The notes below the pieces were generated by a model. That model was not told where the DNA came from and searched no databases. It was given only the letters and a program-made list of their open reading frames with translations. Positions 32,149 to 57,843 of a stretch of DNA of 64,000 nt are shown here, piece by piece. The stretch is from Gammaproteobacteria bacterium. GTDB lineage: Bacteria; Pseudomonadota; Gammaproteobacteria; UBA4575. Position numbers and translations under genes: made by a program. The stretch spans positions 896,001 to 960,000 of the forward strand of contig CBDEUS010000001.1 in the NCBI GenBank assembly GCA_965243395.1, given 5' to 3'. Each line of letters opens with the position of its first letter. Positions within the stretch are counted from its first letter, which is position 1.

Positions 32149-32158
32149 AATGATTTCT

Positions 32159-33097: not shown

Positions 33098-33103
33098 GGC
33101 TTT

Positions 33104-33721: not shown

Positions 33722-33725
33722 AATT

Positions 33726-34106: not shown

Positions 34107-34116
34107 GTAATAATTG

Positions 34117-34701: not shown

Positions 34702-34720
34702 AAGGGTAAAATTTAAAGCA

Positions 34721-36624: not shown

Positions 36625-36638
36625 TGTATACTCGAGGT

Positions 36639-38165: not shown

Positions 38166-38181
38166 TATGAAGTACTCGTGA

Positions 38182-40311: not shown

Positions 40312-40486
40312 TTAGTTACGTAATTTTTACAAGGTAAATCTCAGTATCTTCAGCTTATCAGGATATACCTATAGCGAATACAAGTTGCCTGACTTTTATA
40401 CACTAAATCCCTATATATACGGTTAATATTCATCTCTGTGATCGCTATTCCTGGATTAATGGAGAATCTCGGTGCCTAGCTCCTGC

Positions 40487-41380
40487 TTATTGACTTAAAT
40501 CCTGGAACAACGTGATTTCGGTGCCTCCTCGATTCACAGTCAGCGTGACCTCCGTGGCGGTTGCGAGAGATTGCATTGCTTCAGGACCCTTATTTGGTGC
40601 ATCCAGTGTAACGCCATTAATATTGGTTACTACATCACCAGGCTCCAAACCCAATTTGTTGAACATTTCGGCATTTTTGCTCGGTGTGAGCTTATAGCCC
40701 ATAAACTTACCATCAGGGGAATTCTCTGGGGAAGCGTTTATGAATTCTGTCAAACGAACAGGGTTTTTCATGATTTCTTGTCGAAACTGACCAAGTGTCT
40801 CAAAGTTATTTTGAGCACTGGCCGGACTCGTTTGTGGCTGATTTGCTCTTTGACTGGTGGAGGTTGTTTTCTTTTGGCTAAATCCTTTAGCGTTTGCTCT
40901 TGGCAGACGCAATGTTTCCATCCTAATGTCACGCTCCAGTATCACTCGATCTGCATACACTGCATGAAGGACAGCACCACCAGGAATATCATCGCCTAAT
41001 GCATAGTGTTTGATTTTATTCGCACCACTGGAAATGATGGCGTAACCATATTCCTTTCCACCTGCAAGTACGCCTAGAAGTTTTAAATTCAAAGTAGTTT
41101 CGGGAGCATTTTCAACTTTTTTCACAGAAGCAGCTGGGGCAGGTTTACCCATCAAATGTAGCTGCGCGATCTTTCGGTCGTGATTCGCACGGGGTTGTGG
41201 TTTTACATTTGTTGGAGCCGTGGCGGGGGGTGCAATTACAACATCTGAGCCGCTATCAAAAAATCCCCAAATCAATTTAGCCAAAGTAATTAAGATTAAG
41301 ACAACCAAAGCTATACTGACCCAGCGGGGCAGTTTCATTTCAATCTTGGGCCAAAGGTTATTTAAAGCTGCAGCGTCCAT
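40487..41380 (-). CDS. gspC: T2SS protein C (HR + PDZ)
   Basis: TM segment, APETTLNLKLLGV, ETLRL, PDZ-like GLEPGDVVTNING. Confidence 0.93.
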   Translation of the reverse strand: MDAAALNNLWPKIEMKLPRWVSIALVVLILITLAKLIWGFFDSGSDVVIAPPATAPTNVKPQPRANHDRKIAQLHLMGKPAPAASVKKVENAPETTLNLKLLGVLAGGKEYGYAIISSGANKIKHYALGDDIPGGAVLHAVYADRVILERDIRMETLRLPRANAKGFSQKKTTSTSQRANQPQTSPASAQNNFETLGQFRQEIMKNPVRLTEFINASPENSPDGKFMGYKLTPSKNAEMFNKLGLEPGDVVTNINGVTLDAPNKGPEAMQSLATATEVTLTVNRGGTEITLFQDLSQ

Positions 41381-42074: not shown

Positions 42075-42680
42075 ATGCCGACTTCAATTGACCTGCAAAA
42101 CTTAAACCAAGAAACGCTGAATAAGTGGTTTGATGAAAGATTAGAACAAAAATTACAAGAAAGAGAAGAGTCCAAAATCCCGCAACTTTCACTTATTGCT
42201 ACAAAAGGCACCATGGATATGGCTTATCCGCCATTTATTCTTGCTTCCACAGCCGCAGCATTAGGTTGGGAAGTATCCTGTTTCTTTACTTTTTATGGTT
42301 TAAATTTATTAAAGAAAGACCTTGATTTAGAAATTTCACCTTTAGGCAATCCTGCAATGCCCATGAAAATGCCTTTTGGTCCGGAGTGGTTTAAAAGTGT
42401 TGAGTGGAACATACCCAATGCGTTGAGCAGTAACATCCCGGGTTTTGAAAAGTTTGCAACTTCAATGATGTCTCAAACTCTTAAGAGCAAAGGTGTTGCA
42501 AGCGTTGAAGAGTTACGCGAGCTTTCTATTGAAGCAGATGTGAAACTCGTCGCGTGTCAAATGACAGTAGACTTATTCGGCTATGAAAAAGATGAATTTA
42601 TTGACGACGTGAGTGATTGGGTAGGTGCTGCATCATTCTTGCCAGCGGCACAAAAATCAGATATCTGTTTATTCATTTAG
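42075..42680 (+). CDS. DsrE2-like (DsrE/F-like family) sulfur carrier
   Basis: ATKGTMDMAYPPFILASTAAALG, FFTFYGL, ACQMTVDL, GAASFL. Confidence 0.88.
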   Translation: MPTSIDLQNLNQETLNKWFDERLEQKLQEREESKIPQLSLIATKGTMDMAYPPFILASTAAALGWEVSCFFTFYGLNLLKKDLDLEISPLGNPAMPMKMPFGPEWFKSVEWNIPNALSSNIPGFEKFATSMMSQTLKSKGVASVEELRELSIEADVKLVACQMTVDLFGYEKDEFIDDVSDWVGAASFLPAAQKSDICLFI

Positions 42681-42690
42681 CAAACTAAAA

Positions 42691-43251
42691 TTGAAAGCAT
42701 CACTAGTATTTGGATTCATTTTATTTCTAGGTGTTTCTGCATGCTCACAAAATGTAGAAAAACAGCTCACAGAAAGCAGAGAAGCTACCCAACAACTTGG
42801 CAGTCAACTTAAAAAAAAGTTAGTGCAAAGCATGCAAACCGGTGGCCCAATAGGAGCATTGGACGTTTGCAATATAGAAGCTGAAGATATTGCAGGCAGT
42901 ATTTCTAACAAACTTGGATTAGAAGTAGGTCGAACTTCTCTCAAACTTCGTAACGTAAACAACGCTTCGGATGATTGGGAAAATGAAGTGTTACATTATT
43001 TTGAAAAGCAAAAACAATCTGGAGCAGAGATAAAAAACCTTGAAATCTATGAAATTACTAAAGACATGGATGGCAAGTGGTTTCGTTATATGAAAGCCAT
43101 ACCAACCGCAGAGGTTTGTTTAATGTGTCATGGTGATACCATTGCGCAACCCGTACAAGAAAAACTTCAATCTCTTTACCCAAATGATCAAGCAACAGGT
43201 TTTAAAGCAGGGGATATTCGCGGAGCTTTTACAGTGAAGTTAAAAATGTGA
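42691..43251 (+). CDS. DUF3365 (Tll0287-like) monoheme c-type cytochrome lipoprotein
   Basis: Lipobox-like VSAC, RTSLKLRN, CLMCHG, YP.DQATG...RGAF; start placed at TTG 42691. Confidence 0.88.
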   Translation: MKASLVFGFILFLGVSACSQNVEKQLTESREATQQLGSQLKKKLVQSMQTGGPIGALDVCNIEAEDIAGSISNKLGLEVGRTSLKLRNVNNASDDWENEVLHYFEKQKQSGAEIKNLEIYEITKDMDGKWFRYMKAIPTAEVCLMCHGDTIAQPVQEKLQSLYPNDQATGFKAGDIRGAFTVKLKM

Positions 43252-43328: not shown

Positions 43329-44606
43329 TTATCCAAACATTTCAGCAGTCATATTATTAAACCAGCTATATGCATATTCCACTTCGCGTTTAAGCATTTC
43401 TGGAGAAGCATCTTCAGGAGTCAATCCACCGCCAAGCTTTTTAATCTCCGAACGATCTTCAGCTAATTCATATACCGCTACAACAGAAATTCCATAATCC
43501 GGTGCAATCAAGCTATAGCAAGCATTGGCGTAAGATGCTACAGGTGCATCCTTGCCTTGCAATAAGCTGACTACGGCTGCAGCACATACTTTTGCTTGCG
43601 TGCCGGCCGCATAACCAGACTTAGGCATACCTTTGGCAATACTGGCATCACCAATCACATGCACATCTTTATGTTTTGTTGATTCAAAGGTACCGAGATC
43701 AACCGGGCACCAACCTGAGTCATCTACAAGATCAGAGTCATGTGCAATTTGGGCGGCGTGTTGTGGAGGAATAATATTGGCTACTGCAACTTTATGGTCG
43801 TCGAAGTCCGTGCTTACCGTCATATCTTTTGTATTTACTGACTTAACTCCACCACCTGTGTCTGCACCAGCAACCCACTCAATCATCTCTCCATATACTT
43901 TTTTGTAGCCTTGCATAAACAAACCTTGTTTAGAGAACTTGTCTTTAGCATCAAGGATAAGCAATTTTGACTTTGGCTTATTGTGTTTTAAGTGATGCGC
44001 AATTTGTGCAGCGCGTTCATAAGGTCCAGGCGGACAACGGAAAGGGTTTTGTGGTGGCGCAATAATAACGAGACCACCATCATCCATTGATTCTAGCTGG
44101 CTACGAAGCAAAGCAGTTTGTGGTCCTGCTAGCCAAGAGTGAGGCATCACTTCTGAAGCTTCTTCACTATAACCTTCAATAGCACCAAATTTTAATGAAA
44201 TGCCCGGGGATAGCACACAACGGTCATATTCTAATGTAGTTCCGTTTGCAGTCATCAATTTGTGTGCTTCAGCATCAACCATGGTTGCTTTATCTTGAAC
44301 TAATTTAATACCGTGGCTGGAAATATTATCGTAGCCAAATTTAATAGTAGAGATATCACGATCACCACCAATGACTTCGTTACTCATAAAACAAGTGTGA
44401 TGGTGTGCTTTTGGCTCAACAATGGTAACTTCAATAGATGAATCACCTTTTGCTATATATTTAGCAGCAATTAAACCGCCAACTCCACCACCAACAACTA
44501 CAACACGCTTCTTTGCCGCATGTGCGAGAAACGGAAAACTTAAACCACCAGTAGCTAATGCACCGCCAGTGGCTTTTAAAAAACTTCTTCGATTTAGATT
44601 TGTCAT
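43329..44606 (-). CDS. fccB: Flavocytochrome c sulfide dehydrogenase, flavoprotein subunit
   Basis: Tat signal NRRSFLK, GGGVGG, CFMSN, FRCPPGPYERA, MPKSG, CYSL. Confidence 0.95.
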   Translation of the reverse strand: MTNLNRRSFLKATGGALATGGLSFPFLAHAAKKRVVVVGGGVGGLIAAKYIAKGDSSIEVTIVEPKAHHHTCFMSNEVIGGDRDISTIKFGYDNISSHGIKLVQDKATMVDAEAHKLMTANGTTLEYDRCVLSPGISLKFGAIEGYSEEASEVMPHSWLAGPQTALLRSQLESMDDGGLVIIAPPQNPFRCPPGPYERAAQIAHHLKHNKPKSKLLILDAKDKFSKQGLFMQGYKKVYGEMIEWVAGADTGGGVKSVNTKDMTVSTDFDDHKVAVANIIPPQHAAQIAHDSDLVDDSGWCPVDLGTFESTKHKDVHVIGDASIAKGMPKSGYAAGTQAKVCAAAVVSLLQGKDAPVASYANACYSLIAPDYGISVVAVYELAEDRSEIKKLGGGLTPEDASPEMLKREVEYAYSWFNNMTAEMFG

Positions 44607-44635
44607 TTTTTAAACTCCTAGCTAATCAGTAGTTA

Positions 44636-45295
44636 CTATTGGTTTGCATAAAATTGAATTAAATCACGCATTGCTTCATCACCAGCAGCGGTATGCGCTT
44701 CTTCCATTTGTTTTTTCATTTTCTTGGGCATTTCACGATTGCCATTATTGTAATCGTCAAGTGTATATTGTAAGTAAGGTACCCATTGACCAGCCAAAAC
44801 TCCTGCATCATCTTCTGCAGAGCTGCCACCATCTTCATGACATTTTTCACAATGCGCTTCATGTAATTTCGCACCAGACTTAGCTTGACCATCATCTGCA
44901 GCTTGTTCGGCACTTTCAAACGGCAATTCTGCAAAGTACTTCGCAATGAGTTTAATTTCTTCTTCGGAATACCCTTGAGCAATCCGATCCATTACTGTAG
45001 AGGCTCTGGCAAAGTATTCCACATCTTCAAAATCAGGATCCGATTCAATAATTTCATCAACTTTATCTTCATCATCGCCATACTTATAAGCGAGCATTGC
45101 GCCTATGATGTAAAGTTCTGACATTCCTGAAATGGTGGGCGTTGCTGGTCCTTCACTAATCCCTTCAGGTCCATGACAACCTAAACAAGTATTTGACAGC
45201 ATTTCTGCGCTAGCACCATCTGCAGCTGCAGGTGAAGTGAAAGTTACTCCAAACAATAAAATTAATAGAGTAACAAGGATGCGATGATCTAACAT
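44636..45295 (-). CDS. fccA: Flavocytochrome c diheme cytochrome subunit
   Basis: CLGCH and CEKCH; LAGQW..YL; REMPKKM; AGGAG RBS before the ATG at 45295. Confidence 0.92.
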   Translation of the reverse strand: MLDHRILVTLLILLFGVTFTSPAAADGASAEMLSNTCLGCHGPEGISEGPATPTISGMSELYIIGAMLAYKYGDDEDKVDEIIESDPDFEDVEYFARASTVMDRIAQGYSEEEIKLIAKYFAELPFESAEQAADDGQAKSGAKLHEAHCEKCHEDGGSSAEDDAGVLAGQWVPYLQYTLDDYNNGNREMPKKMKKQMEEAHTAAGDEAMRDLIQFYANQ

Positions 45296-45439
45296 AGAAC
45301 TCCTCCTAATTCCTGGATCCATATGTTGTTATTAATCTGGTACATAGTCATGCATAGACTAAGTACGTGGGAAACTTTAGCACATTGAAAAAACGTATTT
45401 AGCTCTATTCTAATGAAAATTCCTGATTTGTTTTAAGAT

Positions 45440-46006
45440 TTAAGCTTTTTCGTCTTCTTCTTGCTCTTTAGGGATCTCGTGAGCAACTTCTTCAGGCTCT
45501 TCCGGGATTTCATGAGCAACGCCTTTATGGCAATCAATACAGGTTTTTTCGCTGTCACCTTTAGCAATTTTCTTATGTTTTTTGCGCGCAGAGCGATCTT
45601 GTTCTTTTAGGTCCATTGCCGCTATTAAATGACATGACTTACATTCACGTGAATCGGTCGCTTTCATTCGATCCCAAACTGAATTGGCCATTTCCCAGCG
45701 ATAAGCTTCAAATTTTTCTTCCGAATCAATCGCACCAGTAATTTCTCCCCAGACGTCTTTAGCCGCACGAAGTTTTGCAACAAGTTTGGGCCCCGTTTCG
45801 TGAGGAACATGGCAATCAGAGCATTCTGCACGTACACCTGAAATATTTGTGTAATGAATACTCTCCATCCATTCTTCTTGCACCCATTGCATAGAATGGC
45901 AAGAGGTACAAAACTCAGTGCTGTTTGTAGCTTTCAATGTCACCGAGGAGCTAGTGCTTAAAGCTGCACCTATTAATAACAGTAAAACAATAAAAATTAG
46001 CTTCAT
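45440..46006 (-). CDS. NapC/NirT-family tetraheme cytochrome c
   Basis: N-terminal anchor; CTSCH, CSDCH, CKSCH, CIDCH; HYTNISGVRA. Confidence 0.95.
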   Translation of the reverse strand: MKLIFIVLLLLIGAALSTSSSVTLKATNSTEFCTSCHSMQWVQEEWMESIHYTNISGVRAECSDCHVPHETGPKLVAKLRAAKDVWGEITGAIDSEEKFEAYRWEMANSVWDRMKATDSRECKSCHLIAAMDLKEQDRSARKKHKKIAKGDSEKTCIDCHKGVAHEIPEEPEEVAHEIPKEQEEDEKA

Positions 46007-46317: not shown

Positions 46318-47622
46318 ATGAAAACAATTTTTCTATTTATCTTTGGATTAATAGTCTGGTTACTGCTAACCAACTATCAAGTTGTATATTCAAAAATTAC
46401 ATCTTTTGTAAATCTTGAAACAGAGAATACTGAACTTGTCAGCACTGATAACAATATCGAAGCTATCAAAGACACTGTTAATCAAGCAAACGAAAATGAA
46501 ACATCAGATACTAGCTCTGAATTAACTGAAGAAGACGTAGCGAGCCTAGGAGAAGAACAAAATACTAATTCTGATGAATCGATTGCAGAAGAAAATATAA
46601 TTGAAACAACAGATAAAACTGCAGAATCTCAACTGATTGAAGTTACAGCTGCTAGTAACAACCTTGAAGAAGCTGAAACAGATTCAGAAGAAGAGTTTGA
46701 AAAAGAGGCGGAAACTGAAATTGATCAAGCTGTTCAATCTCAAGTAGCTGCAAATTTTCCTATGTTTAATCAATCAATGATGTCCGCTTGGACACCATAC
46801 ATGAATAACAATGCCTATAACCCATGGGCGAACCAATATACAAATATGATGATGGCAATGATGGGTATGATGATGAATCCTGCAACGTACATGAACCCCA
46901 TGACGATGATGAATCCCTCAGTCAACATCATGACACAGCCTCAAAATTTGAATGCAATGATGATGTCCATGGATCCCAAGATGGTGTTCGGCATGTTTGG
47001 ACAACCTAGCCAAAGCTATAAAGAAGGCGAGACACCAGATCAACTACCTGTGGTTACAATTCCAGGTTTTCCTACTCAAACATATCAAAGCTGGCCAAAA
47101 AACACTGTTTCACCTGAAATAACACGTGAAGCAAAGCTCCACGCATTTCAAACTGCAATGGCCATGAGCCCGCTATCGATGCGCAATATGGTTAGCATGA
47201 TGGCCGATAAAATTCCTGTAGACGAGGGTGTGAGTTGGGATGATGCAGTCGAAGCTATGAAACTTCGCGCAAACGAAGTTAACTTTAAATTTGTGGGTTC
47301 AAGTCCACTATGGAAACAAATTGAAGCAGAGACTGAACAACCTTCTGCCAAAGTTGAAATGTTCCGCTTCTGCGATGCAAGAATGGCGAGAAAAATTTTA
47401 GATGAAGTACCCGAGTTTATTGTGTTTTTACCTTGCAAGATTGCGTTGCTAGAAGATGCAGAAGGTAAGCTTTGGGTAATGACTTTAGATTGGGACGTTA
47501 GCTGGTTGGACTATGCGCAAAATCCAAATAACCATTTATCTAAAGATATTCGAGAACATGCAGAAGTGATTAGGGAAAATATTCAATACATCATGGAAGG
47601 TGCGGCAACCGGAGATTTTTAA
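46318..47622 (+). CDS. Exported protein: acidic linker + Met-rich repeat + C-terminal DUF302-like domain
   Basis: Hydrophobic N-terminus, E/T/N-rich region, MMMAMMGMMMNP tract, FRFCD..MA...FLPCKIA. Confidence 0.85.
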   Translation: MKTIFLFIFGLIVWLLLTNYQVVYSKITSFVNLETENTELVSTDNNIEAIKDTVNQANENETSDTSSELTEEDVASLGEEQNTNSDESIAEENIIETTDKTAESQLIEVTAASNNLEEAETDSEEEFEKEAETEIDQAVQSQVAANFPMFNQSMMSAWTPYMNNNAYNPWANQYTNMMMAMMGMMMNPATYMNPMTMMNPSVNIMTQPQNLNAMMMSMDPKMVFGMFGQPSQSYKEGETPDQLPVVTIPGFPTQTYQSWPKNTVSPEITREAKLHAFQTAMAMSPLSMRNMVSMMADKIPVDEGVSWDDAVEAMKLRANEVNFKFVGSSPLWKQIEAETEQPSAKVEMFRFCDARMARKILDEVPEFIVFLPCKIALLEDAEGKLWVMTLDWDVSWLDYAQNPNNHLSKDIREHAEVIRENIQYIMEGAATGDF

Positions 47623-47664
47623 TTCTTTTTGATTAAATTTTAATTGTAATAGCGGAGAAGAGTA

Positions 47665-48432
47665 ATGATAACAAAGAGTAAAATCCTTCAATCAATTGCA
47701 GTTGTAATTGGTTTATTTATTGCTGGGGCTGCAGCGATTCATGCAGATGAACATGCAGGAAAGGATGCTGAAAATAAAGCAAACCCGACTGCTTCATATT
47801 TTAATTGGGGGGGTCAAATGAGTCCTGCGATGCAGAACTCAATGAAGCCTGAAGTCCAGAAAAAAATGATGGGTTGGATGGCTCGACCACAAGACATGAT
47901 GACTATGGAAGGTTGCGCCGCGTGTCATGAAGGCGAGAACTTGGCCCGAATTGCGAAAGACTGGGGCCCGATGCTGTCATCTATGAAGCCAATGGTGGAT
48001 ATGATGAACCCGATGACAGGCATGGTTGAACCCATGATGAACCCCATGATCAGCATGATGCACCCAATGGCGGATATGATGGGTCCAATGATGAATATGA
48101 TGGGACCAATGATGGCGCCTATGACTGGAATGATGAACCCTATGATGGGAATGATGACTCCTATGATGGCGCCTATGACTGGAATGATGAATCCCATGAT
48201 GGCAGGCATGGCTAATCCAGCTCTGATGATGAACCCAGGTTGGTACATGAGCATGATGGGACCAATGATGGGCATGATGTATCCCATGATGAACCCTATG
48301 GGGATGATGGGTGGCTATGGTGGCTATGGCGGTAACTCAATGGGTCAAATGATGGATCCTAAGCAGTATGAAAACTGGTTCAATCAGTGGACAGAGTCCA
48401 TGCAGAACATGGCTCCACAAACTAAACAATAA
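47665..48432 (+). CDS. Exported Met-rich repeat protein with one CxxCH motif
   Basis: Signal peptide (IHA/D), CAACH, (MMxP) repeats, C-terminal MGQMMDPKQYENWFNQW; GGAG RBS. Confidence 0.85.
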   Translation: MITKSKILQSIAVVIGLFIAGAAAIHADEHAGKDAENKANPTASYFNWGGQMSPAMQNSMKPEVQKKMMGWMARPQDMMTMEGCAACHEGENLARIAKDWGPMLSSMKPMVDMMNPMTGMVEPMMNPMISMMHPMADMMGPMMNMMGPMMAPMTGMMNPMMGMMTPMMAPMTGMMNPMMAGMANPALMMNPGWYMSMMGPMMGMMYPMMNPMGMMGGYGGYGGNSMGQMMDPKQYENWFNQWTESMQNMAPQTKQ

Positions 48433-48453
48433 AGTAAGTTCATTTAATGTTGG

Positions 48454-48485
48454 TAAGTCGTGTGTAGAGCACTATGCACGACTTA
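48454..48485 (+). terminator. Intergenic stem-loop (terminator or mRNA stabiliser)
   Basis: taagtcgtgtgtag-agca-ctatgcacgactta, 14-bp stem with two G:U pairs. Confidence 0.6.
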
Positions 48486-48545
48486 GTTATTTCATCGCAT
48501 ACTAGTTTTATTAGCACTAACTACGCAATTAAAGGCAATTACACT

Positions 48546-49076
48546 ATGCAATCTCTCCAAAAAACAATCCTCTTCTTAACTATTACGTGTTGTCTATTCA
48601 TTGTTGGCGCTTCTAACAGTCTTGCTGAGAATAAAGAAAGCACTGCTCCTGATATGAGCGCAATGATGGGTATGATGAATCCAGCAATGTATATGAACAT
48701 GATGAATCCGATGATGGGCATGATGAATCCAGGGATGTACTCGAATATGATGAACCCCATGATGGGTGGGATGAATCCTATGAATCCCATGGCAGGTATG
48801 AACATGATGTACCCGATGATGGGCATGAGTGCTCCAATGATGGGATCAATGATGAATCCAATGATGGGTATGAATATGATGTACCCGATGATGGGCATGA
48901 TGGGGCCTATGATGTCTCCTATGGGTGGAATGGGAATGCCAGGAATGTCTTATAGCACCCCAAATAGTAATCCAATGGGTCAGATGATGGATCCTAAGCA
49001 GTACGAAAACTGGTTCAATCAGTGGACAGAAATGATGAAAAACTTCACACCCCCAACAAATACAACATCTAAATAG
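48546..49076 (+). CDS. Exported Met-rich repeat protein
   Basis: Signal peptide (SLA/E), ~100-aa M/N/P/G tract, same C-terminal motif as the upstream gene; start placed at ATG 48546. Confidence 0.85.
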   Translation: MQSLQKTILFLTITCCLFIVGASNSLAENKESTAPDMSAMMGMMNPAMYMNMMNPMMGMMNPGMYSNMMNPMMGGMNPMNPMAGMNMMYPMMGMSAPMMGSMMNPMMGMNMMYPMMGMMGPMMSPMGGMGMPGMSYSTPNSNPMGQMMDPKQYENWFNQWTEMMKNFTPPTNTTSK

Positions 49077-49105
49077 TATTCGTTTTATTTATTAGACAAA
49101 TATAA

Positions 49106-49582
49106 ATGAATAAAATAGTTCAACAAGCGCTCTTCATAATCCCAATTGCTGCATTAATTGTTGCCCCATTAGTAATTGATCATGAAAAAATAGAATCAAA
49201 ATTTTTTAGTTCTGAAAAGTCAATTACACAGTCTCAATCTAACCATCATAATGATGTAGATTTTAATCTACCGCATGTCGTTGATAATGAACAATATGCA
49301 ATGTCCGAACCATTTTCAGAACACTCTTTTTTCATACATCCATGCAATATGGGCAACCCTATGGACCCTGCTGCTTGGATGAGCATGATGATGCGTATGA
49401 TGAATTACATGCAAATGACGCAGATGATGCAGCAAATGACTAAAATGCCGACCGGGATGACTAATCCATCAGCGACGTGGATGAGCCCACATATGATGAT
49501 GCCAAATCAACCAAATACCGCGAAGCAGCCACTAAGCCCAAAGGAATATGAGAAGTGGTACAACGAGCAGCTTAAAAAGTAA
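49106..49582 (+). CDS. Membrane-anchored or exported Met-rich protein
   Basis: Hydrophobic N-terminus, MDPAAWMSMMMRMM tract, C-terminal SPKEYEKWYNE. Confidence 0.8.
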   Translation: MNKIVQQALFIIPIAALIVAPLVIDHEKIESKFFSSEKSITQSQSNHHNDVDFNLPHVVDNEQYAMSEPFSEHSFFIHPCNMGNPMDPAAWMSMMMRMMNYMQMTQMMQQMTKMPTGMTNPSATWMSPHMMMPNQPNTAKQPLSPKEYEKWYNEQLKK

Positions 49583-49780: not shown

Positions 49781-50926
49781 ATGGAAGAATTATCTAACTT
49801 ACATCTTGTTGCCCTACTAGGATTCTGTATAGCCTTAGTATTCGGCTTTGTTGGAAACAAAACCCATTTTTGTTCAATGGGTGCGATTAGTGATGTAGTT
49901 AATATGGGCGCCAAAGGCAGATTAGGTGCCTGGTTCCTTGCTATAGGCCTTGCCATCCTTGGAGCACAATTCCTCTTTCTTCAAGGTTATATCGATTTAA
50001 ATGCTTCAGTTTATTTATCCCCTAATCTTTATATTTTAAGTTATGTACTGGGTGGCATTCTGTTTGGTATTGGCATGACACTCGCAGCCGGTTGTGGTCA
50101 ACGAAATTTAGTCAGAGTAGGGGGCGGCAACTTAAAAGCATTAGTGGTTTTAATAATCTTAGGCATCACCGCATACATGACCATGCGAGGCGTACTAGCT
50201 ATGGTGCGATTGAATTGGGTGTATGCCGTCAATGCAGACTTAACGACACAAGGTATTCAAGACCAAAGTTTATTTAGTTATTTAGGTGCGCTATTTAATT
50301 TAGAAGATGCCAGTCTGCTAAGAAAAATTGGTGGATTTATCATTGCATTTGGCTTTATTGCTTATGCTTTTAAACAAAAAGAATTCAGAACCAGTTTTGA
50401 TAATGTTCTAGCCGGTGTTGTTATTGGCGTCTGTATTACCGCAGCCTGGTTTGTAACAGGCTATATCGGGCAAGATGACTTTGACCCGATCACTCCACAA
50501 GGCATGGCATTTATAGGTCCAACTGGTAACACTATTAGCTACCTTATGACGTTTACGGGTGCACAAATTAACTTTGGAATAGCCGTTGCTCTTGGCATGA
50601 TTGCTGGCTCATTTATTTATGCAATATTTTCTGGAAATTTCAGAATAGAAACTTTTAGTAACAAAACTGAAATGGTCAATCACATGATCGGTGGAGTATT
50701 GATGGGATTTGGTGGTGTATTGTCTTTTGGATGCACCATTGGACAAGGCGTTACAGGTATGTCTACGTTGGCAATTGGCTCGATGATGACTTTAGCTTCC
50801 ATCATCTTTGGCAGTGCGCTTACCATGAAAATTCAATATCACATGCTAGATGAAAAAGGCTTTTTCCCTGCGCTAGGCACCGGCTTATCTGAGCTACTTA
50901 TACCATGGAAAAAACAAGAAGCTTAA
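49781..50926 (+). CDS. YeeE/YedE-family sulfur-compound (thiosulfate) transporter
   Basis: Three conserved Cys motifs FCSMG, AAGCG, FGCTIGQG; about 9 TM helices. Confidence 0.93.
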   Translation: MEELSNLHLVALLGFCIALVFGFVGNKTHFCSMGAISDVVNMGAKGRLGAWFLAIGLAILGAQFLFLQGYIDLNASVYLSPNLYILSYVLGGILFGIGMTLAAGCGQRNLVRVGGGNLKALVVLIILGITAYMTMRGVLAMVRLNWVYAVNADLTTQGIQDQSLFSYLGALFNLEDASLLRKIGGFIIAFGFIAYAFKQKEFRTSFDNVLAGVVIGVCITAAWFVTGYIGQDDFDPITPQGMAFIGPTGNTISYLMTFTGAQINFGIAVALGMIAGSFIYAIFSGNFRIETFSNKTEMVNHMIGGVLMGFGGVLSFGCTIGQGVTGMSTLAIGSMMTLASIIFGSALTMKIQYHMLDEKGFFPALGTGLSELLIPWKKQEA

Positions 50927-50957: not shown

Positions 50958-51374
50958 GTGCACTTATCATACCGAATTCTATTCGTTCTCTTTTTAATAT
51001 CTATCTCAACAATAGTATTTTCCGAGCAAGATGATCCTGTTGTTACTGGATCCAAAACATTTAAAGCAAAATGTGCTTCATGTCATGGAGATGATGCTAA
51101 AGGAAAAAATTCTAGTGACACTGACACAAAACTGAATGCTCCTGATTTAACACAGATTTCAAAAAGAAATAAAGGCGAATTTCCCGTATCGAGAATCTAT
51201 GCAATTATTGATGGTAGGGAAGTGTTACAAGAACACGGCACGCGCGCGATGCCAACTTGGGGGGATCTATTTTTATCAGATACGATTTGGGAAGGTTGCA
51301 GTCAGGTAGATGAGCAAATTGTTCGCGGCAGAATTTTAGAACTCATTTTATATCTTGACTCTATTCAGCAGTAA
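50958..51374 (+). CDS. Monoheme cytochrome c
   Basis: Signal peptide, CASCHG, APDLT, HG.RAMP.WG. Confidence 0.9.
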   Translation: MHLSYRILFVLFLISISTIVFSEQDDPVVTGSKTFKAKCASCHGDDAKGKNSSDTDTKLNAPDLTQISKRNKGEFPVSRIYAIIDGREVLQEHGTRAMPTWGDLFLSDTIWEGCSQVDEQIVRGRILELILYLDSIQQ

Positions 51375-51437: not shown

Positions 51438-51755
51438 TTACTTAATTACTGCTTCTCCTGAACCGGTTTCGCCAAGATTATCTGTCCAGCTAATTTTTAC
51501 CGTATCTCCAGCGTTTCCACCTTCAAACTCAAATGACCAGTAAGGGTTTTTAGAAACTCCTGTTCCCCATTCAGCAGAAATAATCATTTCACCGTTGAGT
51601 TCGGCTTTTACTTCTTTAATAAAGTGTGCAGGAATGAGTTCGCCCGTTTCTTTGTCTTTTCGACTACCGGACTCCATTTCGTGATACATAATGGCTTTCA
51701 CGACAGTAACGCCATCTTTTAATTTCGCCCTAATTTTCATTTCTTTTTCAGCCAT
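51438..51755 (-). CDS. soxZ: Sulfur oxidation protein SoxZ
   Basis: HEMESG.RKD, IPAHFI, VSKNPY, WTDN.G. Confidence 0.96.
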   Translation of the reverse strand: MAEKEMKIRAKLKDGVTVVKAIMYHEMESGSRKDKETGELIPAHFIKEVKAELNGEMIISAEWGTGVSKNPYWSFEFEGGNAGDTVKISWTDNLGETGSGEAVIK

Positions 51756-51773: not shown

Positions 51774-52223
51774 TTAAACGCAGCCGCCGGCCGTTACTTT
51801 TACAGCACTTTTACTTGAGTAAAGTTTTCCATCCGATTTAACAATTGCAACTACATTGGATGACTCGCGCAATTTAATACGTGTGGATACAAATGGTTTT
51901 GATTTTCCGTGAAAATAAAACCTTGAAATCCAAGGACGAGGGTTTTTATCACCCATAATGCTGATCCATTCAACATTTTCCAAATCGGTTGAAACCTTTA
52001 CGGGTACCGTTGCACCGTTTTCTGCAATTTCGGGTGCATCAATCATAACGTGACCTTCTAATAATTCTTGATCACCAATTAAACCTTTAAGAGCAGGTTC
52101 ATATTCGGTTTCATCAAAGGCTGCTGTAGGCCACTCTGCCGAAAGAATAGAAGGGATGCCCATTGCCGATAGCAACCCCACATAAAAGCTTTTTTCTAAA
52201 AAATTTCTTCTGGATATCTTCAT
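51774..52223 (-). CDS. soxY: Sulfur carrier SoxY (variant C-terminus)
   Basis: Tat signal SRRNFL, APEIAENGATVPV, STRIK, VKVTAGGCV. Confidence 0.93.
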   Translation of the reverse strand: MKISRRNFLEKSFYVGLLSAMGIPSILSAEWPTAAFDETEYEPALKGLIGDQELLEGHVMIDAPEIAENGATVPVKVSTDLENVEWISIMGDKNPRPWISRFYFHGKSKPFVSTRIKLRESSNVVAIVKSDGKLYSSKSAVKVTAGGCV

Positions 52224-53695: not shown

Positions 53696-54568
53696 GTGAA
53701 TGAAATGACTCGAGAATTCTGCATAGAATTGCGCGGGATTGAACTAAAAGACCGCAATGTTCTAAAGCGTATACTAGCGATTACAGAAGGTCGTACGCGC
53801 ACCTATAGACTAGTTGATTCTACCGAATCCGACCACGCCGATATACTTATTGTTAATGCAGATGACAACAATATAAAAGAGGAGTGGGCACAGGAATTTA
53901 TTGGCACGAATGGAATTTGTATGATTCCAACTATCCTGGCTAGCAGATCCAGACTCGAAGATACTCAATACAACAGCACAAGTTTACCTTTCTTTCCAAC
54001 ACGGATTTTAAAATTACTCGATGAGGTTACCGTAAAAGAGTTTAGATTCACTCCTGAACTCCGTATTGAAGAACCGAAAAATATAGAGATAGAAACCGAA
54101 AAAGAATATAACTCTTTTAACCAACGTAACTATAAAGCTGAATTAAGTAACAAAGAACTAGAAACATTTATTGGCCAAGCTGATATCGGTGTCGATCAGA
54201 ATAGAAAACGTAATGTTTTAGTTGTTGACGATAGTCTGCCGATTCGAAAAGCATTAGATATGAAGCTTCGTTTGATGGACTATGATGTTCATCATGCATC
54301 TAGTGGCCGTCAGGCTTTATATTCCATTCAAAAAACCCGATTTGATTTTATATTTCTTGATGTTGTCATGCCTGGTATCGATGGATATGAGGTTTGTAAA
54401 CTTATAAAACGAAACAAATCAACTAAAAACATACCTGTAGTGATGCTTACAAGTCGATCATCACCATTCGACAAAGTAAAAGGAAGATTAGCAGGTTGTG
54501 ATTCATATCTAACCAAACCGGTTGAACATGAAAAGTTCGAGAAAGTTGTTGCTAGTCTGGTTGCTTAA
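53696..54568 (+). CDS. PilG-like response regulator with a long N-terminal extension
   Basis: C-terminal receiver VVDDS, FLDVVMPGIDGY, SSPFDKVKGRLAGCDSYLTKP. Confidence 0.88.
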   Translation: MNEMTREFCIELRGIELKDRNVLKRILAITEGRTRTYRLVDSTESDHADILIVNADDNNIKEEWAQEFIGTNGICMIPTILASRSRLEDTQYNSTSLPFFPTRILKLLDEVTVKEFRFTPELRIEEPKNIEIETEKEYNSFNQRNYKAELSNKELETFIGQADIGVDQNRKRNVLVVDDSLPIRKALDMKLRLMDYDVHHASSGRQALYSIQKTRFDFIFLDVVMPGIDGYEVCKLIKRNKSTKNIPVVMLTSRSSPFDKVKGRLAGCDSYLTKPVEHEKFEKVVASLVA

Positions 54569-54579
54569 AAGGATTTGTT

Positions 54580-54942
54580 ATGAGTAGCAAAGTACTAATT
54601 GTTGATGATTCTAAATTCGATCTAGAGTTATTAAAGACAATTGTTAGCAAAGAAGGCTACGAAGTTATAACTGCAATATCTGGCCAAGAAGCTGTTGACA
54701 AAGCAACTAGCGTACATCCGGACTTAATCTTTATGGATGTCATTATGGAAAACAAAGACGGTTTCGAAGCTTGTCGAGAGATCATTTCCAATACAGAAAC
54801 AAAACACATACCCATCATTTTTGTTACAGGTAAATGTCAAAAAGCCGATCGAATTTGGGCTGAATTACAAGGTGGTAAAGCTCTAGTTGGAAAACCCTTT
54901 ACACCTGACCAAATAGTTAACGAGATTCATAAGCATATTTAG
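54580..54942 (+). CDS. pilH: PilH-like single-domain response regulator
   Basis: IVDDS, FMDVIM...GFEACR, QKADRIWA..QG. Confidence 0.85.
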   Translation: MSSKVLIVDDSKFDLELLKTIVSKEGYEVITAISGQEAVDKATSVHPDLIFMDVIMENKDGFEACREIISNTETKHIPIIFVTGKCQKADRIWAELQGGKALVGKPFTPDQIVNEIHKHI

Positions 54943-54952
54943 ATAAAACGAT

Positions 54953-55498
54953 ATGGATACCACAAACCCTCAACATAACGAAACCTCATGGCTTTTAGAT
55001 AATGAAAAGCTGATTGAAAAACTTGAATCTGCCTATCAAGGAAAGTCGAATGAAAAGGAAAGTAGCACTGTGCTGCGGTGTTATGGATTCAAGGCAGGGA
55101 ACATGAATTTTATTATAGATGAAGCTATAGCTTGTGAAATATTAGATGAAAGTAACATTCATTTTGTTCCAATGAGTGCCAGTTGGTTAATAGGCGTTTC
55201 AAATATAAGAGGCGATGTAGTACCTATTATTGATTTAGAAAAGTTAATTAACGGAGATGATTCAAATGCCGAGTATAAAAATAGAAAGCTAGCAATCATT
55301 GGGAAAGGTGAAAATACCATTGGAATTGAATTAGATGAATTACCAGTTTTATTGGAATTTGATAAAAGAAAAAAAATAAATGATTTTTCTAATCAAGCTG
55401 ATCGTATACAACCGTTTATTCAATATGCATACGAGAAAGATGATGATATTTGGTTCTGTATTAATTTTCCTCCGTTTATTGAATCTATCTCTTTTTAA
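54953..55498 (+). CDS. CheW/PilI-like coupling protein
   Basis: VP...SWLIGVSNIRGDVVPIIDL. Confidence 0.9.
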   Translation: MDTTNPQHNETSWLLDNEKLIEKLESAYQGKSNEKESSTVLRCYGFKAGNMNFIIDEAIACEILDESNIHFVPMSASWLIGVSNIRGDVVPIIDLEKLINGDDSNAEYKNRKLAIIGKGENTIGIELDELPVLLEFDKRKKINDFSNQADRIQPFIQYAYEKDDDIWFCINFPPFIESISF

Positions 55499-55531
55499 AT
55501 TTAACTATATACATGCTATTAGGACAAAGTC

Positions 55532-57808
55532 ATGATTAATTCAAGCATACTCTCAAACATATCGATTAACAAAAAGCTCACAATATTATTCATATCTGTA
55601 GCAGTCGGTTTTGCGATTACCACTGCCGCATATTGGTTTAAAGTTATGAACGAACGTGAGTCAATAGAACGTACAAATTTATTTATTGAATATAGTAATC
55701 TCATTAGCGAGGCACAAAAGAACTATTTTAAAGTAAGGAGATTTGAAAAAGACTTTTTACTAAGTATCTCAGCTTCTACGGGTCAAACATACAACAATAC
55801 ACCATTAGATGAACACGCAAAGCATGTATCTTTGCTAGAAGATAACATGGTCGAATTGCGAAACTTAGGCGATAAAATTAATGCATCAAGGTCTGAAGAA
55901 GTAGTTATCAACGAGATAGAGATGCCTGTCGAGTATATTCCCGAACTCGTTACACAAGCATCAACTGTTGTAGATAATTATAAAACATCATTTTCAGACA
56001 TCGTAAAGTTCAATCAATTTGTAGGTTTTACTGACAATGATGGTTTAAGGCTGAAAGCAAGACAACTTCTAAATTCAATCGAAAGTAATTTAGTAAAAAC
56101 TGAAAATCCGAAATTACTCGTTTCTATAGCTAATCTTCGATTTAACGAAAAACATATTCTACAGTCAATTGACTTAACCGAGTCGTATGAGAATCTTAAA
56201 ATTGAAGCACAAGAATTTAAAAAAATATTGAAACGTACCCCTCTAAATCTACAAAATAAAAATCTTTTAGTTAACTATATGGATGACTATTTGAATATTG
56301 TAGAAGAAATAGTCACAAATAAACGAAATGCAAACGAATATACAGAGCTTTATGATTTTATGTTAGGCCCAATGTTCGACGAGATGGGTAGATCCTCACA
56401 ATTAAGTATCATTCAAAACCAGGCTGCATTAGAAAAAGACACCATAATTGCAACGCTAGTTGTGACAATTTTATTGATTGCAATAGCAATTTTAATTACT
56501 TCTTTGCTTTATTATTTTGGTGATTCAATTCGAAAGCCTATTAATAAGCTTTTAAACACAATACATGATGTCAATAAAGGTAACCTAAATGCAAGAGTAA
56601 AATCTGATCAAAAAGATGAGTTTGGTGAACTTGCCGATTCCTTTGATCAGCTTCTTGATGAAAAAGTCGCACAGCTCTCAAATTCGGAAAAAGAAAACGA
56701 AGATCTCAATGAGTCAGTGATAGAACTAATAAAAGCTGTAGCACAGCTCAGTAAAAAAGACTTTACTGTAAAAGTGCCAGTTTCTGAAGATATCACTGGA
56801 GCAATTGGTGATTCGCTTAATTTATTGACACATCAAACTGCAGACGCACTCATTAATGTGAGAACAATTTCTTCTCAAGTAGCTGGTGTCTCTAATATCG
56901 TGCATAAACAATCTAGACTCGTAATGGCTGTTGCTGAACAAGAACGCAAGCAAGTTGAACATACTGTGGTAGAGCTTAATAAATCCTCCGATGCGATGAA
57001 TAAAATTTCTACCGACGCTGAGGATGCAAACAAAAGAGCTGATAATGCAATTAAAAATACACAATCTGCATTGACTGCTGTAAATCGCTCCGTTGAGGGT
57101 ATTAATAGTATTCGAGATACGATTCGTGAAACAGAAAAAAGAATTAAACGTCTAGGTGAACGATCACAAGAAATTACCGGAATTGTTAATTTAATTAACT
57201 CTATTGCTGAGCGTACCCACATTCTTGCACTCAATGCGAGTATGCATGCCTCGGCTGCTGGTGAAGCTGGTCGCGGGTTTGCTGTGGTTGCAGAAGAGGT
57301 GCAGCGTCTTGCGGAAAGTGCGCGTGAAGCAACAACTGAAATAGATACGCTTGTAAATAATATTCGTATTGAAACAAAAGATACTGTTACCGCAATGAAC
57401 AAAGCAATAAGTCAGGTTGCTGATGGGACCAAACTTGCTGAACAAGCTGGTGAAGCTATGCAACATACCGAAAAATCGACTGAAGATTTGGTTAAGGCCG
57501 TAGAAAAAATTACTGTTAGCTCAAAAGATCAGGCTAATGTAAGCCAAGAAATTGTAGAAAAGTCAAAAGAAATTGTACTAAATACACGTAAAACTGATAA
57601 ATACCTTCAAAAGCAAACAGTCAACACCAATAATCTTGTTAAGTTTTCCAAGAAACTACTCTCTACAATTCGTACATTCAATCTTCCTGAAAAAGAATCT
57701 GATCCATATAACATTAATGTACAAACCATTGATGTTCCCGAAATTTCAGATGCAATTAAAAAGCAAGATGCAAATGAAGCAGGTAATGACAAAGTCGTAA
57801 ACGCTTAA
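55532..57808 (+). CDS. Methyl-accepting chemotaxis protein (PilJ-like)
   Basis: Two TM segments, HAMP, hairpin tip IAERTHILALNASMHASAAGEAGRGFAVVAEEV. Confidence 0.95.
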   Translation: MINSSILSNISINKKLTILFISVAVGFAITTAAYWFKVMNERESIERTNLFIEYSNLISEAQKNYFKVRRFEKDFLLSISASTGQTYNNTPLDEHAKHVSLLEDNMVELRNLGDKINASRSEEVVINEIEMPVEYIPELVTQASTVVDNYKTSFSDIVKFNQFVGFTDNDGLRLKARQLLNSIESNLVKTENPKLLVSIANLRFNEKHILQSIDLTESYENLKIEAQEFKKILKRTPLNLQNKNLLVNYMDDYLNIVEEIVTNKRNANEYTELYDFMLGPMFDEMGRSSQLSIIQNQAALEKDTIIATLVVTILLIAIAILITSLLYYFGDSIRKPINKLLNTIHDVNKGNLNARVKSDQKDEFGELADSFDQLLDEKVAQLSNSEKENEDLNESVIELIKAVAQLSKKDFTVKVPVSEDITGAIGDSLNLLTHQTADALINVRTISSQVAGVSNIVHKQSRLVMAVAEQERKQVEHTVVELNKSSDAMNKISTDAEDANKRADNAIKNTQSALTAVNRSVEGINSIRDTIRETEKRIKRLGERSQEITGIVNLINSIAERTHILALNASMHASAAGEAGRGFAVVAEEVQRLAESAREATTEIDTLVNNIRIETKDTVTAMNKAISQVADGTKLAEQAGEAMQHTEKSTEDLVKAVEKITVSSKDQANVSQEIVEKSKEIVLNTRKTDKYLQKQTVNTNNLVKFSKKLLSTIRTFNLPEKESDPYNINVQTIDVPEISDAIKKQDANEAGNDKVVNA

Positions 57809-57843
57809 ACATAGAAAAAATATATATAAAAGATTTTAACAAA

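Follow-up and report, generated by a model that had tools for sequence, protein, structure and literature searches.

What role do four adjacent, exceptionally methionine-rich proteins play within a sulfur-oxidation locus? The question is raised by genes O1–O4, which lie close together within a 64,000-nucleotide stretch of gammaproteobacterial DNA (hereafter the window). The locus represents an undescribed and conserved module, which lies within the sulfur-oxidation loci of uncultured sulfur bacteria belonging to a marine-type group.

Architecture and composition of the methionine-rich genes

The open reading frames (ORFs) of the window include the four co-oriented, forward-strand genes that an earlier note on this DNA had placed between positions 46318 and 49582. 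These genes and a stem-loop that lies among them are as follows:

46318-47622, + strand: O1, 434 aa, DUF302 protein (ORF and Pfam DUF302)
47665-48432, + strand: O2, 255 aa, 25.5% Met (ORF and CAACH motif)
48454-48485, + strand: 14-bp stem-loop between O2 and O3, with a T-rich tail after it (consensus scan only)
48546-49076, + strand: O3, 176 aa, 29.5% Met, assigned as an O2 paralogue that lacks the heme domain
49106-49582, + strand: O4, 158 aa, 13.3% Met, assigned as an O2 paralogue

The Met/Pro/Asn/Gly low-complexity tracts described previously are borne out in all four ORFs and contain 27–41% Met, against a mean of 2.25% across ORFs of at least 300 aa in the same genome. Similarly, the reported density of about 45% Met over some 100 aa in 48546–49076 agrees with the 46 Met counted in the best 100-aa segment of O3. 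When all six frames of the 2.58-Mb genome were scanned, peak density reached 16–21 Met per 40 residues in O1–O4 and no ORF beyond the cluster exceeded 11; chance composition is excluded as the source of this enrichment. The O2 and O3 tracts each comprise 41% Met, with 2–4% charged residues, 0–1% His, no Cys and Pro spaced at 7 or 4 residues. Tract length differs among orthologues, from none to ~150 aa, through in-frame tandem repeats. Because the non-repetitive parts are kept in 76 homologues, the coding strand is correct as called; antisense ORFs at 47925–48287 and 48539–48898 are mirror images of the repeats and were rejected as genes of their own. N-terminal signal peptides or anchors were assigned to O1–O4 by eye and suggest export. 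The stem-loop is possibly an internal attenuator or mRNA stabilizer.

O2 and its paralogues

O2 consists of a Sec-type signal peptide (by eye), a putative small helical heme-c domain (approximately residues 50–115), the Met tract and a C-terminal helix motif, MDPKQYENWFNQWTE. The CxxCH motif previously reported on one of the four proteins is the CAACH at residues 84–88 of O2, in which C84 and C87 are the sole cysteines of the protein, and its C, C and H are invariant in all 76 O2 relatives. Several Met are likewise invariant among these relatives and are candidates for the sixth heme ligand. The 129-aa tract (41% Met) follows an uncharged (x-P-M-M-x-M-M) theme and is predicted to be disordered, with model pLDDT values of 86–92 over residues 50–110 and below 50 over residues 164–228, and a helix at residues 232–249.

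Database searches with O2 gave no match in Pfam or NCBIfam at E ≤ 0.01 and none to a PDB chain at E ≤ 1 by sequence. In fold comparisons, the best Foldseek match had E 4.8 and the best VIA-align match Z 4.1, the latter to generic helices only; the confident domain spans only ~65 residues. With the heme domain as sole query, 27 matches were found at E ≤ 1e-3 among 1.84 billion cluster representatives, and no publication on O2 was found in the literature. O2 is similar to Class I and SoxAX-type cytochromes in its single CxxCH, apparent export, invariant Met and sulfur-oxidation locus, but differs from them in matching no cytochrome model, no PDB sequence and no convincing fold. On sequence grounds, O2 belongs to a new family of monoheme c-type cytochromes and would carry attached heme.

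O3 and O4 are lineage-specific paralogues of O2 in which the tract and C-terminal helix are kept. Neither had a Pfam or NCBIfam match, and the expectation that these proteins belong to no characterized family holds for O2–O4 in both databases, and for O2 in the PDB. O3 comprises a signal peptide (by eye), a 120-aa tract (41% Met) and the C-terminal motif of O2; it aligns to positions 106–221 of the O2-family profile and is kept in 17 of 36 loci. Its start was set at 48546 because homologues begin at the same point; a longer version starting at 48474 was rejected, the hairpin at 48454–48485 filling the gap after O2. In O4, which by eye is membrane-anchored or exported, the Met/Gln tract is shorter and the C-terminus carries a PKEYEKWYNEQ motif. 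All that decay has left of the heme motif in the window copy is one Cys, whereas orthologues in three other loci (L007, L012 and L022) still have the CxxCH domain.

O1, its DUF302 domain and an invariant cysteine pair

O1 extends from an N-terminal hydrophobic signal or anchor through an acidic variable linker, a Met-rich tract (approximately residues 150–232, 27% Met) and a conserved pre-domain to a C-terminal DUF302 domain. This domain occupies residues 340–391 (PF03625; Pfam score 37.1 bits, gathering cut-off 23; E 2.8e-9) and was also recovered by the genome search; the two cysteines that had been ascribed to a DUF302-like domain are C352 and C373, the only ones in O1. The AlphaFold model has pLDDT values of 70–94 over DUF302 and below 50 elsewhere. 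In Foldseek comparisons the modelled domain matched 1q9u_A (E 1.1e-7, TMt 0.79) and 1j3m_A (E 5e-7, TMt 0.70), and it is predicted to have the TT1751/1q9u-like alpha-beta fold, akin to the solved DUF302 folds 1q9u, 1j3m and 7tj1.

The Cys pair (FCD... / LPC...) is invariant in all 33 aligned O1-type sequences (the O1 fragment of the window and 32 orthologues). It is also present in each of the 18 nearest plain DUF302 relatives, which have no Met tract and seven of which have a soxAX, fccAB or Tll0287-like gene within 1.5 kb. O1 has the Cys pair and sulfur-gene neighbours in common with plain sox- or fcc-linked periplasmic DUF302 proteins but, unlike these, is extended by a conserved pre-domain (~140 aa), a Met-rich tract and a linker that is long and variable. 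Within one lineage (L005 type), O1 is without the long Met tract. Genome notes record DUF302 genes in sox clusters without soxCD (PMC5037610), and DUF302 has been described beside YeeE in sox clusters (PMC11034169).

The O1–O2 pair is the core of the module

In each of the 33 loci of the collection, O2 is immediately preceded by O1, and the two are adjacent in 36/36 loci when three from other families are included. Synteny is kept over at least four families, with intact ORFs and invariant motifs in 76 relatives. Of the 56 home-order genomes, 40 contain O2, 37 contain O1 and 36 contain both; matches in the four O2-only genomes span just the Met/C-terminal part, and the match in the one O1-only genome falls at a contig end. 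Within an even sample of 400 gammaproteobacterial genomes, O1 of the full-length type (E ≤ 1e-131) was detected in six, the very six that have O2, and the O1 pre-domain was found only alongside O2 (6/6, versus 0/89 genomes bearing plain DUF302). O1 and O2 are an obligate pair and form the core of the module. The four-protein system proposed in the earlier note is conserved and undescribed, but its members are not four equal partners: the selected unit is the O1–O2 pair, with O3 and O4 as paralogues.

O1 and O2 are both missing from approximately 15 of the 56 genomes of the order. One complete 1.6-Mb genome of the order has yeeE and soxZY adjacent and the module absent, whilst assembly breaks probably account for several further apparent absences. 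Dsr-based sulfur oxidation can do without the module.

Sulfur-gene neighbourhood and hosts

The genes flanking O1–O4 in the window, with the number of loci in which they recur where counted singly, are:

42075-42680, + strand: DsrE2, sulfur carrier (NCBIfam NF047629, score 220.6 bits, cut-off 210); 34 of 36 loci
43329-44606, - strand: FccB, divergent from O1 (Pfam/NCBIfam)
44636-45322, - strand: diheme FccA-like cytochrome, divergent from O1 (Pfam/NCBIfam)
45440-46006, - strand: NapC/NirT tetraheme cytochrome, divergent from O1 (Pfam/NCBIfam)
49781-50926, + strand: YeeE/YedE-family (Sulf_transp) membrane protein (PF04143, E 4e-63); 32 of 36 loci
50958-51374, + strand: small monoheme cytochrome c (Pfam); 5 of 36 loci
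51438-51755, - strand: SoxZ (Pfam); 28 of 36 loci
51774-52223, - strand: SoxY (Pfam), C-terminus GGCV where the canonical form is GGCGG; 28 of 36 loci

This arrangement is the one described previously, with NapC/NirT, FccA-like and FccB genes upstream on the opposite strand and YeeE, cytochrome c, SoxZ and SoxY downstream. As a general setting for the module it survives in part: across the 36 loci (tblastn counts, identities confirmed by Pfam), DsrE2, YeeE and SoxYZ are constant neighbours, but the FccB/FccA-like/NapC unit (43329–46006) occurs in just 18. Other neighbours included TusA (13 loci), a FadL-type porin (10), SoxX (9) and SoxA (8). When Pfam families were counted without preselection over 145 ORFs of nine of the 36 loci, DUF302 (9), Sulf_transp (8), SoxY (8), SoxZ (7) and DsrE_2 (6) came out at the top. 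When fcc/sox/dsr neighbours were weighed against cop/msrPQ neighbours, sulfur genes lay beside the module in 36/36 loci, and MsrP-like or multicopper oxidase genes in none.

In keeping with the sulfur-related role first suggested, homologues were found in Dsr-type sulfur oxidizers only. Within the home order, dsrA was present in 54 and fccB in 55 of the 56 genomes. The complete genome to which the window belongs contains dsrA and represents a DsrAB and FccAB host, and no soxA, soxB or soxC was found in it. Given the GGCV terminus of SoxY and a host without soxA, soxB or soxC, the SoxYZ of this locus cannot operate in the canonical Sox cycle. The module is very likely tied to sulfur metabolism.

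A possible role in handling zero-valent sulfur

The four-protein module probably handles elemental sulfur outside the cytoplasm. As to mechanism, we tentatively favour an accessory periplasmic module that would hold and redox-activate zero-valent sulfur and feed a SoxYZ/YeeE/DsrE2 route, a reading that is quite possible but that we stop short of calling likely. Zero-valent sulfur (S8 or polysulfane) would be supplied by periplasmic FccAB or, in other lineages, by way of a FadL-type porin. On chemical reasoning, the disordered, thioether-rich and Pro-punctuated tracts would act as a soft coat or phase retaining this hydrophobic sulfur, and their physical character, with high Met, few charges, spaced Pro and predicted disorder, appears to fit a hydrophobic coat. 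The O2 heme and the O1 DUF302 Cys pair may open S–S bonds via redox chemistry, and sulfane sulfur could then pass to the variant carrier SoxYZ and to YeeE in the membrane and, if transfer runs in this direction, onwards through DsrE2 (and TusA) to cytoplasmic rDsr. The dispensability of the module and the presence of FccAB in no more than 18 of the 36 loci count against this reading. A more far-reaching version, which we regard as doubtful, is that O2 with its paralogues and O1 with its Cys pair constitute a new kind of periplasmic sulfur organelle coat or condensate, a thioether-rich protein phase that dissolves S0, mobilizes it, whether stored or imported, through a gate of heme and thiol, and hands it over to the non-canonical SoxYZ and YeeE for import. 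If true, this would provide the long-sought connection of extracytoplasmic zero-valent sulfur with the cytoplasmic Dsr pathway.

The sulfur-globule envelope proteins SgpA–D of Allochromatium vinosum, an rDsr organism, are described as Sec-exported and repetitive with regularly spaced prolines, and SgpA–C as extremely hydrophobic (PMC10386293). As far as that description goes, the Met-rich proteins resemble SgpA–D in having Sec-type signals (by eye here), repeats and spaced Pro, the Met-rich tracts and SgpA–C are both hydrophobic and largely uncharged, and the hosts of both are rDsr sulfur oxidizers. In contrast, the Met/Pro/Asn/Gly composition is other than that reported for Sgp proteins, and neither the O2 heme domain nor a DUF302 partner is known for Sgp proteins.

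Alternative explanations

An enzyme with a tethered carrier is an unlikely alternative to zero-valent sulfur storage. In such a system DUF302 would be a periplasmic catalyst acting on sulfur compounds, such as the polythionates or SoxY-bound sulfur proposed for DUF302 genes linked to sox, O2 its dedicated cytochrome, and the tracts inert spacers or docking arms, flexible and inert to proteases and sulfide rather than binding ligands. Strict O1–O2 co-occurrence would suit this arrangement, as would the L005-type O1, the Cys pair of plain DUF302 proteins, which are found beside sox or fcc genes despite lacking a Met tract, and the role in trithionate oxidation speculated for DUF302 (PMC5037610). 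However, a spacer needs no 41% Met, a trait nonetheless kept over four paralogues and several families, and O3, which is little beyond a tract and a C-terminal helix, still persists in 17/36 loci.

The tracts might instead serve as a Cu(I)/Ag(I) sponge or chaperone, shielding copper from sulfide precipitation or detoxifying the metal, with the heme and DUF302 domains engaged in metal redox. MxxM is a classical Cu(I)/Ag(I) ligand pattern, Met-only Cu(I) sites occur in periplasmic copper proteins, and overlapping MxxM motifs number 33 in O2 and 27 in O3; metal binding by these tracts is chemically as feasible as sulfur binding. We nevertheless consider this role improbable, as a homologue of multicopper oxidase, the copper protein used as query, was found in 0/36 loci, no copper family ranked among the top 25 Pfam families of the 145 ORFs from nine loci, and the sole multicopper oxidase of the genome lies on the other contig. 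Furthermore, known Met-rich copper loops also employ His/Asp, whereas the tracts contain 0–1% His and 2–4% charged residues.

Equally improbable is an oxidant sink, in which Met would be sacrificed at the oxic–sulfidic interface and re-reduced by MsrP, or a redox switch that would dissolve a condensate and gate sulfur handling by oxygen. Met oxidation reportedly dissolves, reversibly, the Met-rich condensate of the yeast Pbp1 low-complexity domain. Since Met oxidation could melt a Met-rich phase, the condensate envisaged for zero-valent sulfur might itself double as an oxygen-sensitive switch. A sink would be consistent with Met-rich and apparently periplasmic proteins, with the one MsrP-like molybdoenzyme of the genome, and with the precedent of MrpX from Azospira suillum, a Met-rich periplasmic peptide that works with YedY/MsrP and is encoded in the yedYZ operon (PMC4436054). 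O1–O4 are comparable to MrpX, as described there, in being exported (here by eye), natively unfolded (here predicted) and Met-rich, but MrpX has 20% Met and 44% charged residues (PMC4436054), as opposed to 41% and 2–4% in the O2 and O3 tracts, and O2 has an invariant heme site. This site and the DUF302 partner would be superfluous for a pure sink. Moreover, the MsrP-like gene of the genome is ~183 kb distant, its product as query detected an MsrP-like gene in 0/36 loci, and Oxidored_molyb was absent from the top 25 Pfam families of the 145 neighbouring ORFs (nine loci).

The negligible prospect that these are non-functional, decaying or artefactual low-complexity ORFs, as the lost heme motif of O4 in the window and variable repeat length might suggest, is refuted by conservation: ORFs are intact and their motifs invariant in 76 relatives, and the gene order extends over at least four families.

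A fifth, Met/Tyr-rich protein

A further gene, for a related protein judged by eye to be secreted, was found in the window:

62381-62989, - strand: protein with MNPxxYMN repeats, tract 18% Met and 9% Tyr

This protein, for which no Pfam match was obtained, is encoded at a syntenic position beyond soxYZ, on the downstream side, in 14 of the 36 loci and possibly belongs to the same system as O1–O4.

Architecture of four methionine-rich proteins

ORF calling across the window substantiated the four co-oriented genes that an earlier note had picked out from the sequence, and resolved them as follows.

46318-47622 (+): O1, 434 aa, with a hydrophobic N-terminus, a long acidic linker, a Met-rich stretch and a C-terminal DUF302 domain
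47665-48432 (+): O2, 255 aa, with a Sec-like leader (by eye), CAACH at residues 84-88, a Met tract and the C-terminal end MDPKQYENWFNQWTE
48546-49076 (+): O3, an O2-like protein without the heme part
49106-49582 (+): O4, with an N-terminus resembling a membrane anchor, a shorter Met/Gln tract and a related motif at the C-terminus

Methionine accounts for 27% of O1 residues 150-232 and 41% of the 129-residue O2 tract, to which Pro, Gly and Asn contribute a further 13%, 14% and 7% and charged residues just 4%. The mean Met content of long ORFs in this genome is 2.25%, and none of the other ORFs in a six-frame scan of all 2.58 Mb approached the Met values of O1-O4. Successive prolines in O2 and O3 are spaced 7 or 4 residues apart, and the DNA contains in-frame tandem repeats, imperfect and 9 to 72 bases long. 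Outside the window, contig C1 of the same genome encodes a small Met/Cys-rich ORF 6 kb upstream (C1:889975-890265) and a secreted Met/His-rich protein (C1:488404-488880). The O2-O3 gap contains a 14-bp stem-loop (48454-48485, +) with a T-rich tail; the stem-loop overlaps a spurious longer O3 start (48474).

Searches of a 5.8-billion-protein collection returned 155 relatives of O2 (E <= 0.001), of which all named entries are 'hypothetical' except one labelled cytochrome c553. Both Cys and the His of the CxxCH motif are invariant in a 76-sequence alignment, as are one Pro, one Gly and several Met. AlphaFold predicted with confidence a small helical domain (residues 50-110, pLDDT 86-92) and a C-terminal helix, and a disordered tract (pLDDT below 50). 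O2 had no match in Pfam, NCBIfam or PDB sequences; its model reached a best, unconvincing E of 4.8 against the PDB with Foldseek and a best Z of 4.1 against 48,161 chains with VIA-align, the latter reflecting generic helices only, and neither search excludes any family. The heme domain alone gave 27 matches (E <= 1e-3) among 1.84 billion cluster representatives and no usable match in the ESM Atlas. O2 defines a new putative heme-binding domain family. O4 orthologues of three other genomes retain the O2-type heme domain; O2, O3 and O4 are therefore paralogues, descended from one ancestor with a leader, a heme domain, a Met tract and a C-terminal helix.

O1 and the DUF302 family

To our knowledge, DUF302 is represented by three solved structures and has no known function. 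The C-terminal domain of O1 scores above the Pfam DUF302 threshold, its last 140 residues model as a DUF302 fold (1q9u, TMt 0.79), and its exactly two cysteines are both invariant across 33 aligned O1-type sequences. The 18 closest ordinary DUF302 proteins, drawn from other gammaproteobacterial families, all have the same pair; to their architecture O1 adds a conserved ~140-residue pre-domain and the Met tract. A soxAX, fccAB or Tll0287-like gene lies within 1.5 kb of seven of these 18 plain DUF302 genes, in agreement with published genome notes, whose gene descriptions place DUF302, with no function assigned there, inside sox clusters without soxCD (PMC5037610), next to YeeE in the sox clusters of Sulfitobacter (PMC11034169) and within an sqr operon of a cyanobacterium (PMC5061849). 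The O1 locus gives context to this sulfur-linked branch of the family. A second, plain DUF302 ORF of 136 aa is encoded on contig C2 of the same genome, outside the window (C2:671792-671977).

When the O1 and O2 families were compared profile against profile, only Met-repeat segments aligned, and no deeper relationship emerged. Complex prediction with the C-terminal 240 aa of O1 and O2 residues 45-255, both with alignments, gave a score of 0.00 (mark 0.32), which speaks neither for nor against binding. That the system is simply a DUF302 enzyme with a tethered cytochrome, its Met tracts serving only as spacers, is an unlikely explanation, and the best placed of the alternatives considered here.

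Distribution of the O1-O2 pair

In all 33 loci of the species-level genome collection, every one from an uncultured Gammaproteobacteria/Thiotrichales MAG, the O2 gene is immediately preceded by that of O1. Within the home order (one family, 56 species genomes), O2 was detected in 40 genomes, O1 in 37 and both in 36; the four O2-only matches covered just the Met/C-terminal part, and the single O1-only match was truncated by a contig end. Across an even sample of 400 class genomes, the full-length O1 type (E <= 1e-131) and O2 occurred in exactly the same six genomes, spanning four families, and 89 further genomes had plain DUF302 proteins only. The module core is an obligate O1+O2 pair, and at six of the 400 sampled class genomes its taxonomic range is narrow.

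In the window's genus and in genus g11, several MAGs without the pair carry fccB at a contig end, suggesting that the Met-repeat genes break short-read assemblies; some apparent absences of O1/O2 are thus probably assembly breaks at repeats, and the module is probably under-counted in metagenome-assembled genomes. The genomes apparently lacking O1/O2 with fccB or O1 at a contig end are G010, G014, G018, G043, G045 and G047. Genuine absence also occurs, as in a complete 1.6-Mb genome in which yeeE and soxZY are adjacent and O1/O2 are missing, and the module is therefore accessory.

A conserved sulfur-oxidation neighbourhood

Pfam and NCBIfam scans bore out the earlier description of the neighbouring genes. 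DsrE2 and a Tll0287-like protein are encoded upstream of O1, together with FccB, a diheme cytochrome and a NapC/NirT tetraheme cytochrome on the opposite strand; downstream of O4 follow a YeeE/Sulf_transp membrane protein, a member of the thiosulfate/sulfur transporter family, a small cytochrome c and SoxZ-SoxY. Three of these genes are taken up individually in the text.

42625-43251 (+): Tll0287-like (PF11845) protein with a CLMCH motif, between dsrE2 and fccB
45440-46006 (-): NapC/NirT-type tetraheme cytochrome
51774-52223 (-): SoxY, ending in GGCV, not the canonical GGCGG

The window's proteins and four proteins from locus L005 were searched by tblastn over 36 loci, recovering O1 in 36, DsrE2 in 34, YeeE in 32, SoxY and SoxZ in 28 each, FccA, FccB and NapC in 18 each, TusA in 13, a FadL/TodX-type porin in 10, SoxX in nine and SoxA in eight; loci without a given neighbour are mostly short. 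The most distant lineage has the arrangement soxX-soxY-soxZ-soxA-tusA-dsrE2-fadL-yeeE, divergent from O1-O2. An unbiased Pfam tally of 145 ORFs within ~6.5 kb of O2, from nine of the 36 loci spanning clades, ranked DUF302 (9), Sulf_transp (8), SoxY (8), SoxZ (7) and DsrE_2 (6) highest, followed by NapC (4), FCSD (4) and FadL (3), with no copper or methionine-sulfoxide-reductase family among the 25 most frequent of the 87 tallied. The earlier note had set linkage to fcc/sox/dsr against linkage to copper/msr genes, and the comparison came out for sulfur, the genome's own MsrP-like molybdoenzyme and multicopper oxidase each being found by tblastn at 0/36 loci. From this context, O1-O4 very probably constitute an exported redox and thiol module of sulfur trafficking between periplasm and cytoplasmic Dsr route, with leaders judged by eye.

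The neighbourhood likewise bears on two further readings. A Cu(I)/Ag(I) binder would accord with the abundant MxxM motifs, but the surveyed loci show no linked copper genes and His is nearly absent, making this reading improbable. An oxidant sink or oxidation-gated condensate, for which MrpX and Pbp1 are precedents, is just as doubtful, since msrP is unlinked and the charge content very different.

At loci L005, L008, L010, L020, L025, L027, L031, L033, L046 and L048, from other families, genes for TusA and a FadL/TodX-type outer-membrane channel adjoin the module (soxX-Y-Z-A-tusA-dsrE2-fadL-yeeE); the presence of such a hydrophobic-compound porin among sulfur genes is a hint of elemental-sulfur uptake. 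The NapC/NirT-type gene forms one unit with fccAB in 18/36 loci, pointing to a connection between flavocytochrome c and the quinone pool in this lineage. The Tll0287-like gene is present in 8/36 loci, and its listed GTG start, overlapping the end of dsrE2, is probably too early.

Host metabolism and a variant SoxY

Genomes of the home order almost uniformly encode dsrA (54/56) and fccB (55/56), the latter so widespread that module presence cannot be informatively compared with it. The window's genome (100% complete, two contigs) contains dsrA and no soxB, soxC or soxA. Across the order, soxB occurs in 24/56 genomes with no relation to O2, and in 0/15 of the window's genus; a role for O1/O2 as a SoxB replacement was rejected, as O2 is found both with and without soxB. 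Among SoxY C-termini surveyed in loci L003-L047, 19/28 end in GGCV (GGCA or GGCT in sister genera), and the canonical GGCGG end characterizes the soxAX-linked lineage (8/28). The variant end, together with the missing soxA, soxB and soxC, marks the window's SoxYZ as a putative non-canonical carrier in a host without a Sox cycle, and the pair looks like an orphan.

Proposed mechanism and significance

An old question about sulfur oxidizers is how insoluble zero-valent sulfur stays available to them outside the cytoplasm and by what route it reaches the Dsr or sHdr enzymes within; the globule proteins known to us are purely structural and confined to few lineages. We tentatively propose, from gene context, that O1-O4 handle zero-valent sulfur, which is quite possible. 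The Met tracts are uncharged, hydrophobic but broken by Pro, Gly and Asn, predicted to be disordered and variable in length, properties that are the signature of a material, not of a binding site. Their thioether-rich phase would be a plausible solvent for S8 or polysulfane, the heme and invariant Cys pair would supply electrons and a thiol for S-S bond opening, and sulfane sulfur would be handed to SoxYZ and YeeE and then to DsrE2/TusA. A hydrophobic substrate is also consistent with the FadL-type porin of some lineages.

In purple sulfur bacteria, the Sgp envelope proteins are described as Sec-exported and hydrophobic, with prolines at regular intervals (PMC10386293); the Met tracts share this grammar, with Sec export assigned here by eye, but their side chain is a thioether. 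A coarse search of the genome by composition for small, secreted Gly/Tyr-rich proteins returned one ORF outside the window (C1:706953-707330), a secreted Tyr/Gly/Arg-rich protein of 126 aa that speaks neither for nor against Sgp-type proteins.

A search of openly accessible main-text literature found no description of the O2 family or the O1-O2 system; DUF302 in O1 aside, O1-O4 are covered by none of the curated families, solved structures or papers searched. No characterized system known to us combines a heme-c domain, extended by a disordered 40%-Met tail, with strict pairing to an elaborated DUF302 protein. We regard O1-O4 as new as a system, with a function read from context. One conserved module unites a variant SoxYZ carrier, YeeE and the cytoplasmic relays DsrE2 and, in some loci, TusA, as well as a hydrophobic-compound porin in some lineages, with two uncharacterized redox/thiol proteins of extraordinary thioether-rich, disordered composition, and so supplies concrete and cheaply testable candidates for extracytoplasmic sulfur handling.

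Other genes of the window

The first 16 kb of the window hold housekeeping and regulatory genes by Pfam scan, with no bearing on the module. The sulfur locus is flanked by gene groups at 29650-41380 (-) and 53696-61176 (+), one a type II secretion cluster, in which Pfam confirmed the GspD secretin and GspC, and the other a chemotaxis-type cluster with response regulators, CheW, an MCP and a CheA-like hybrid kinase. Two further genes lie beyond.

61574-62239 (-): HAD-family hydrolase
62381-62989 (-): secreted protein with MNPxxYMN repeats and two Cys

The tract of the secreted protein contains 18% Met and 9% Tyr; the protein has no Pfam match, and its 51 relatives are all 'hypothetical'. Its gene adjoins that of the hydrolase and is syntenic downstream of soxYZ in 14/36 loci, and the protein may be a fifth member of the system.
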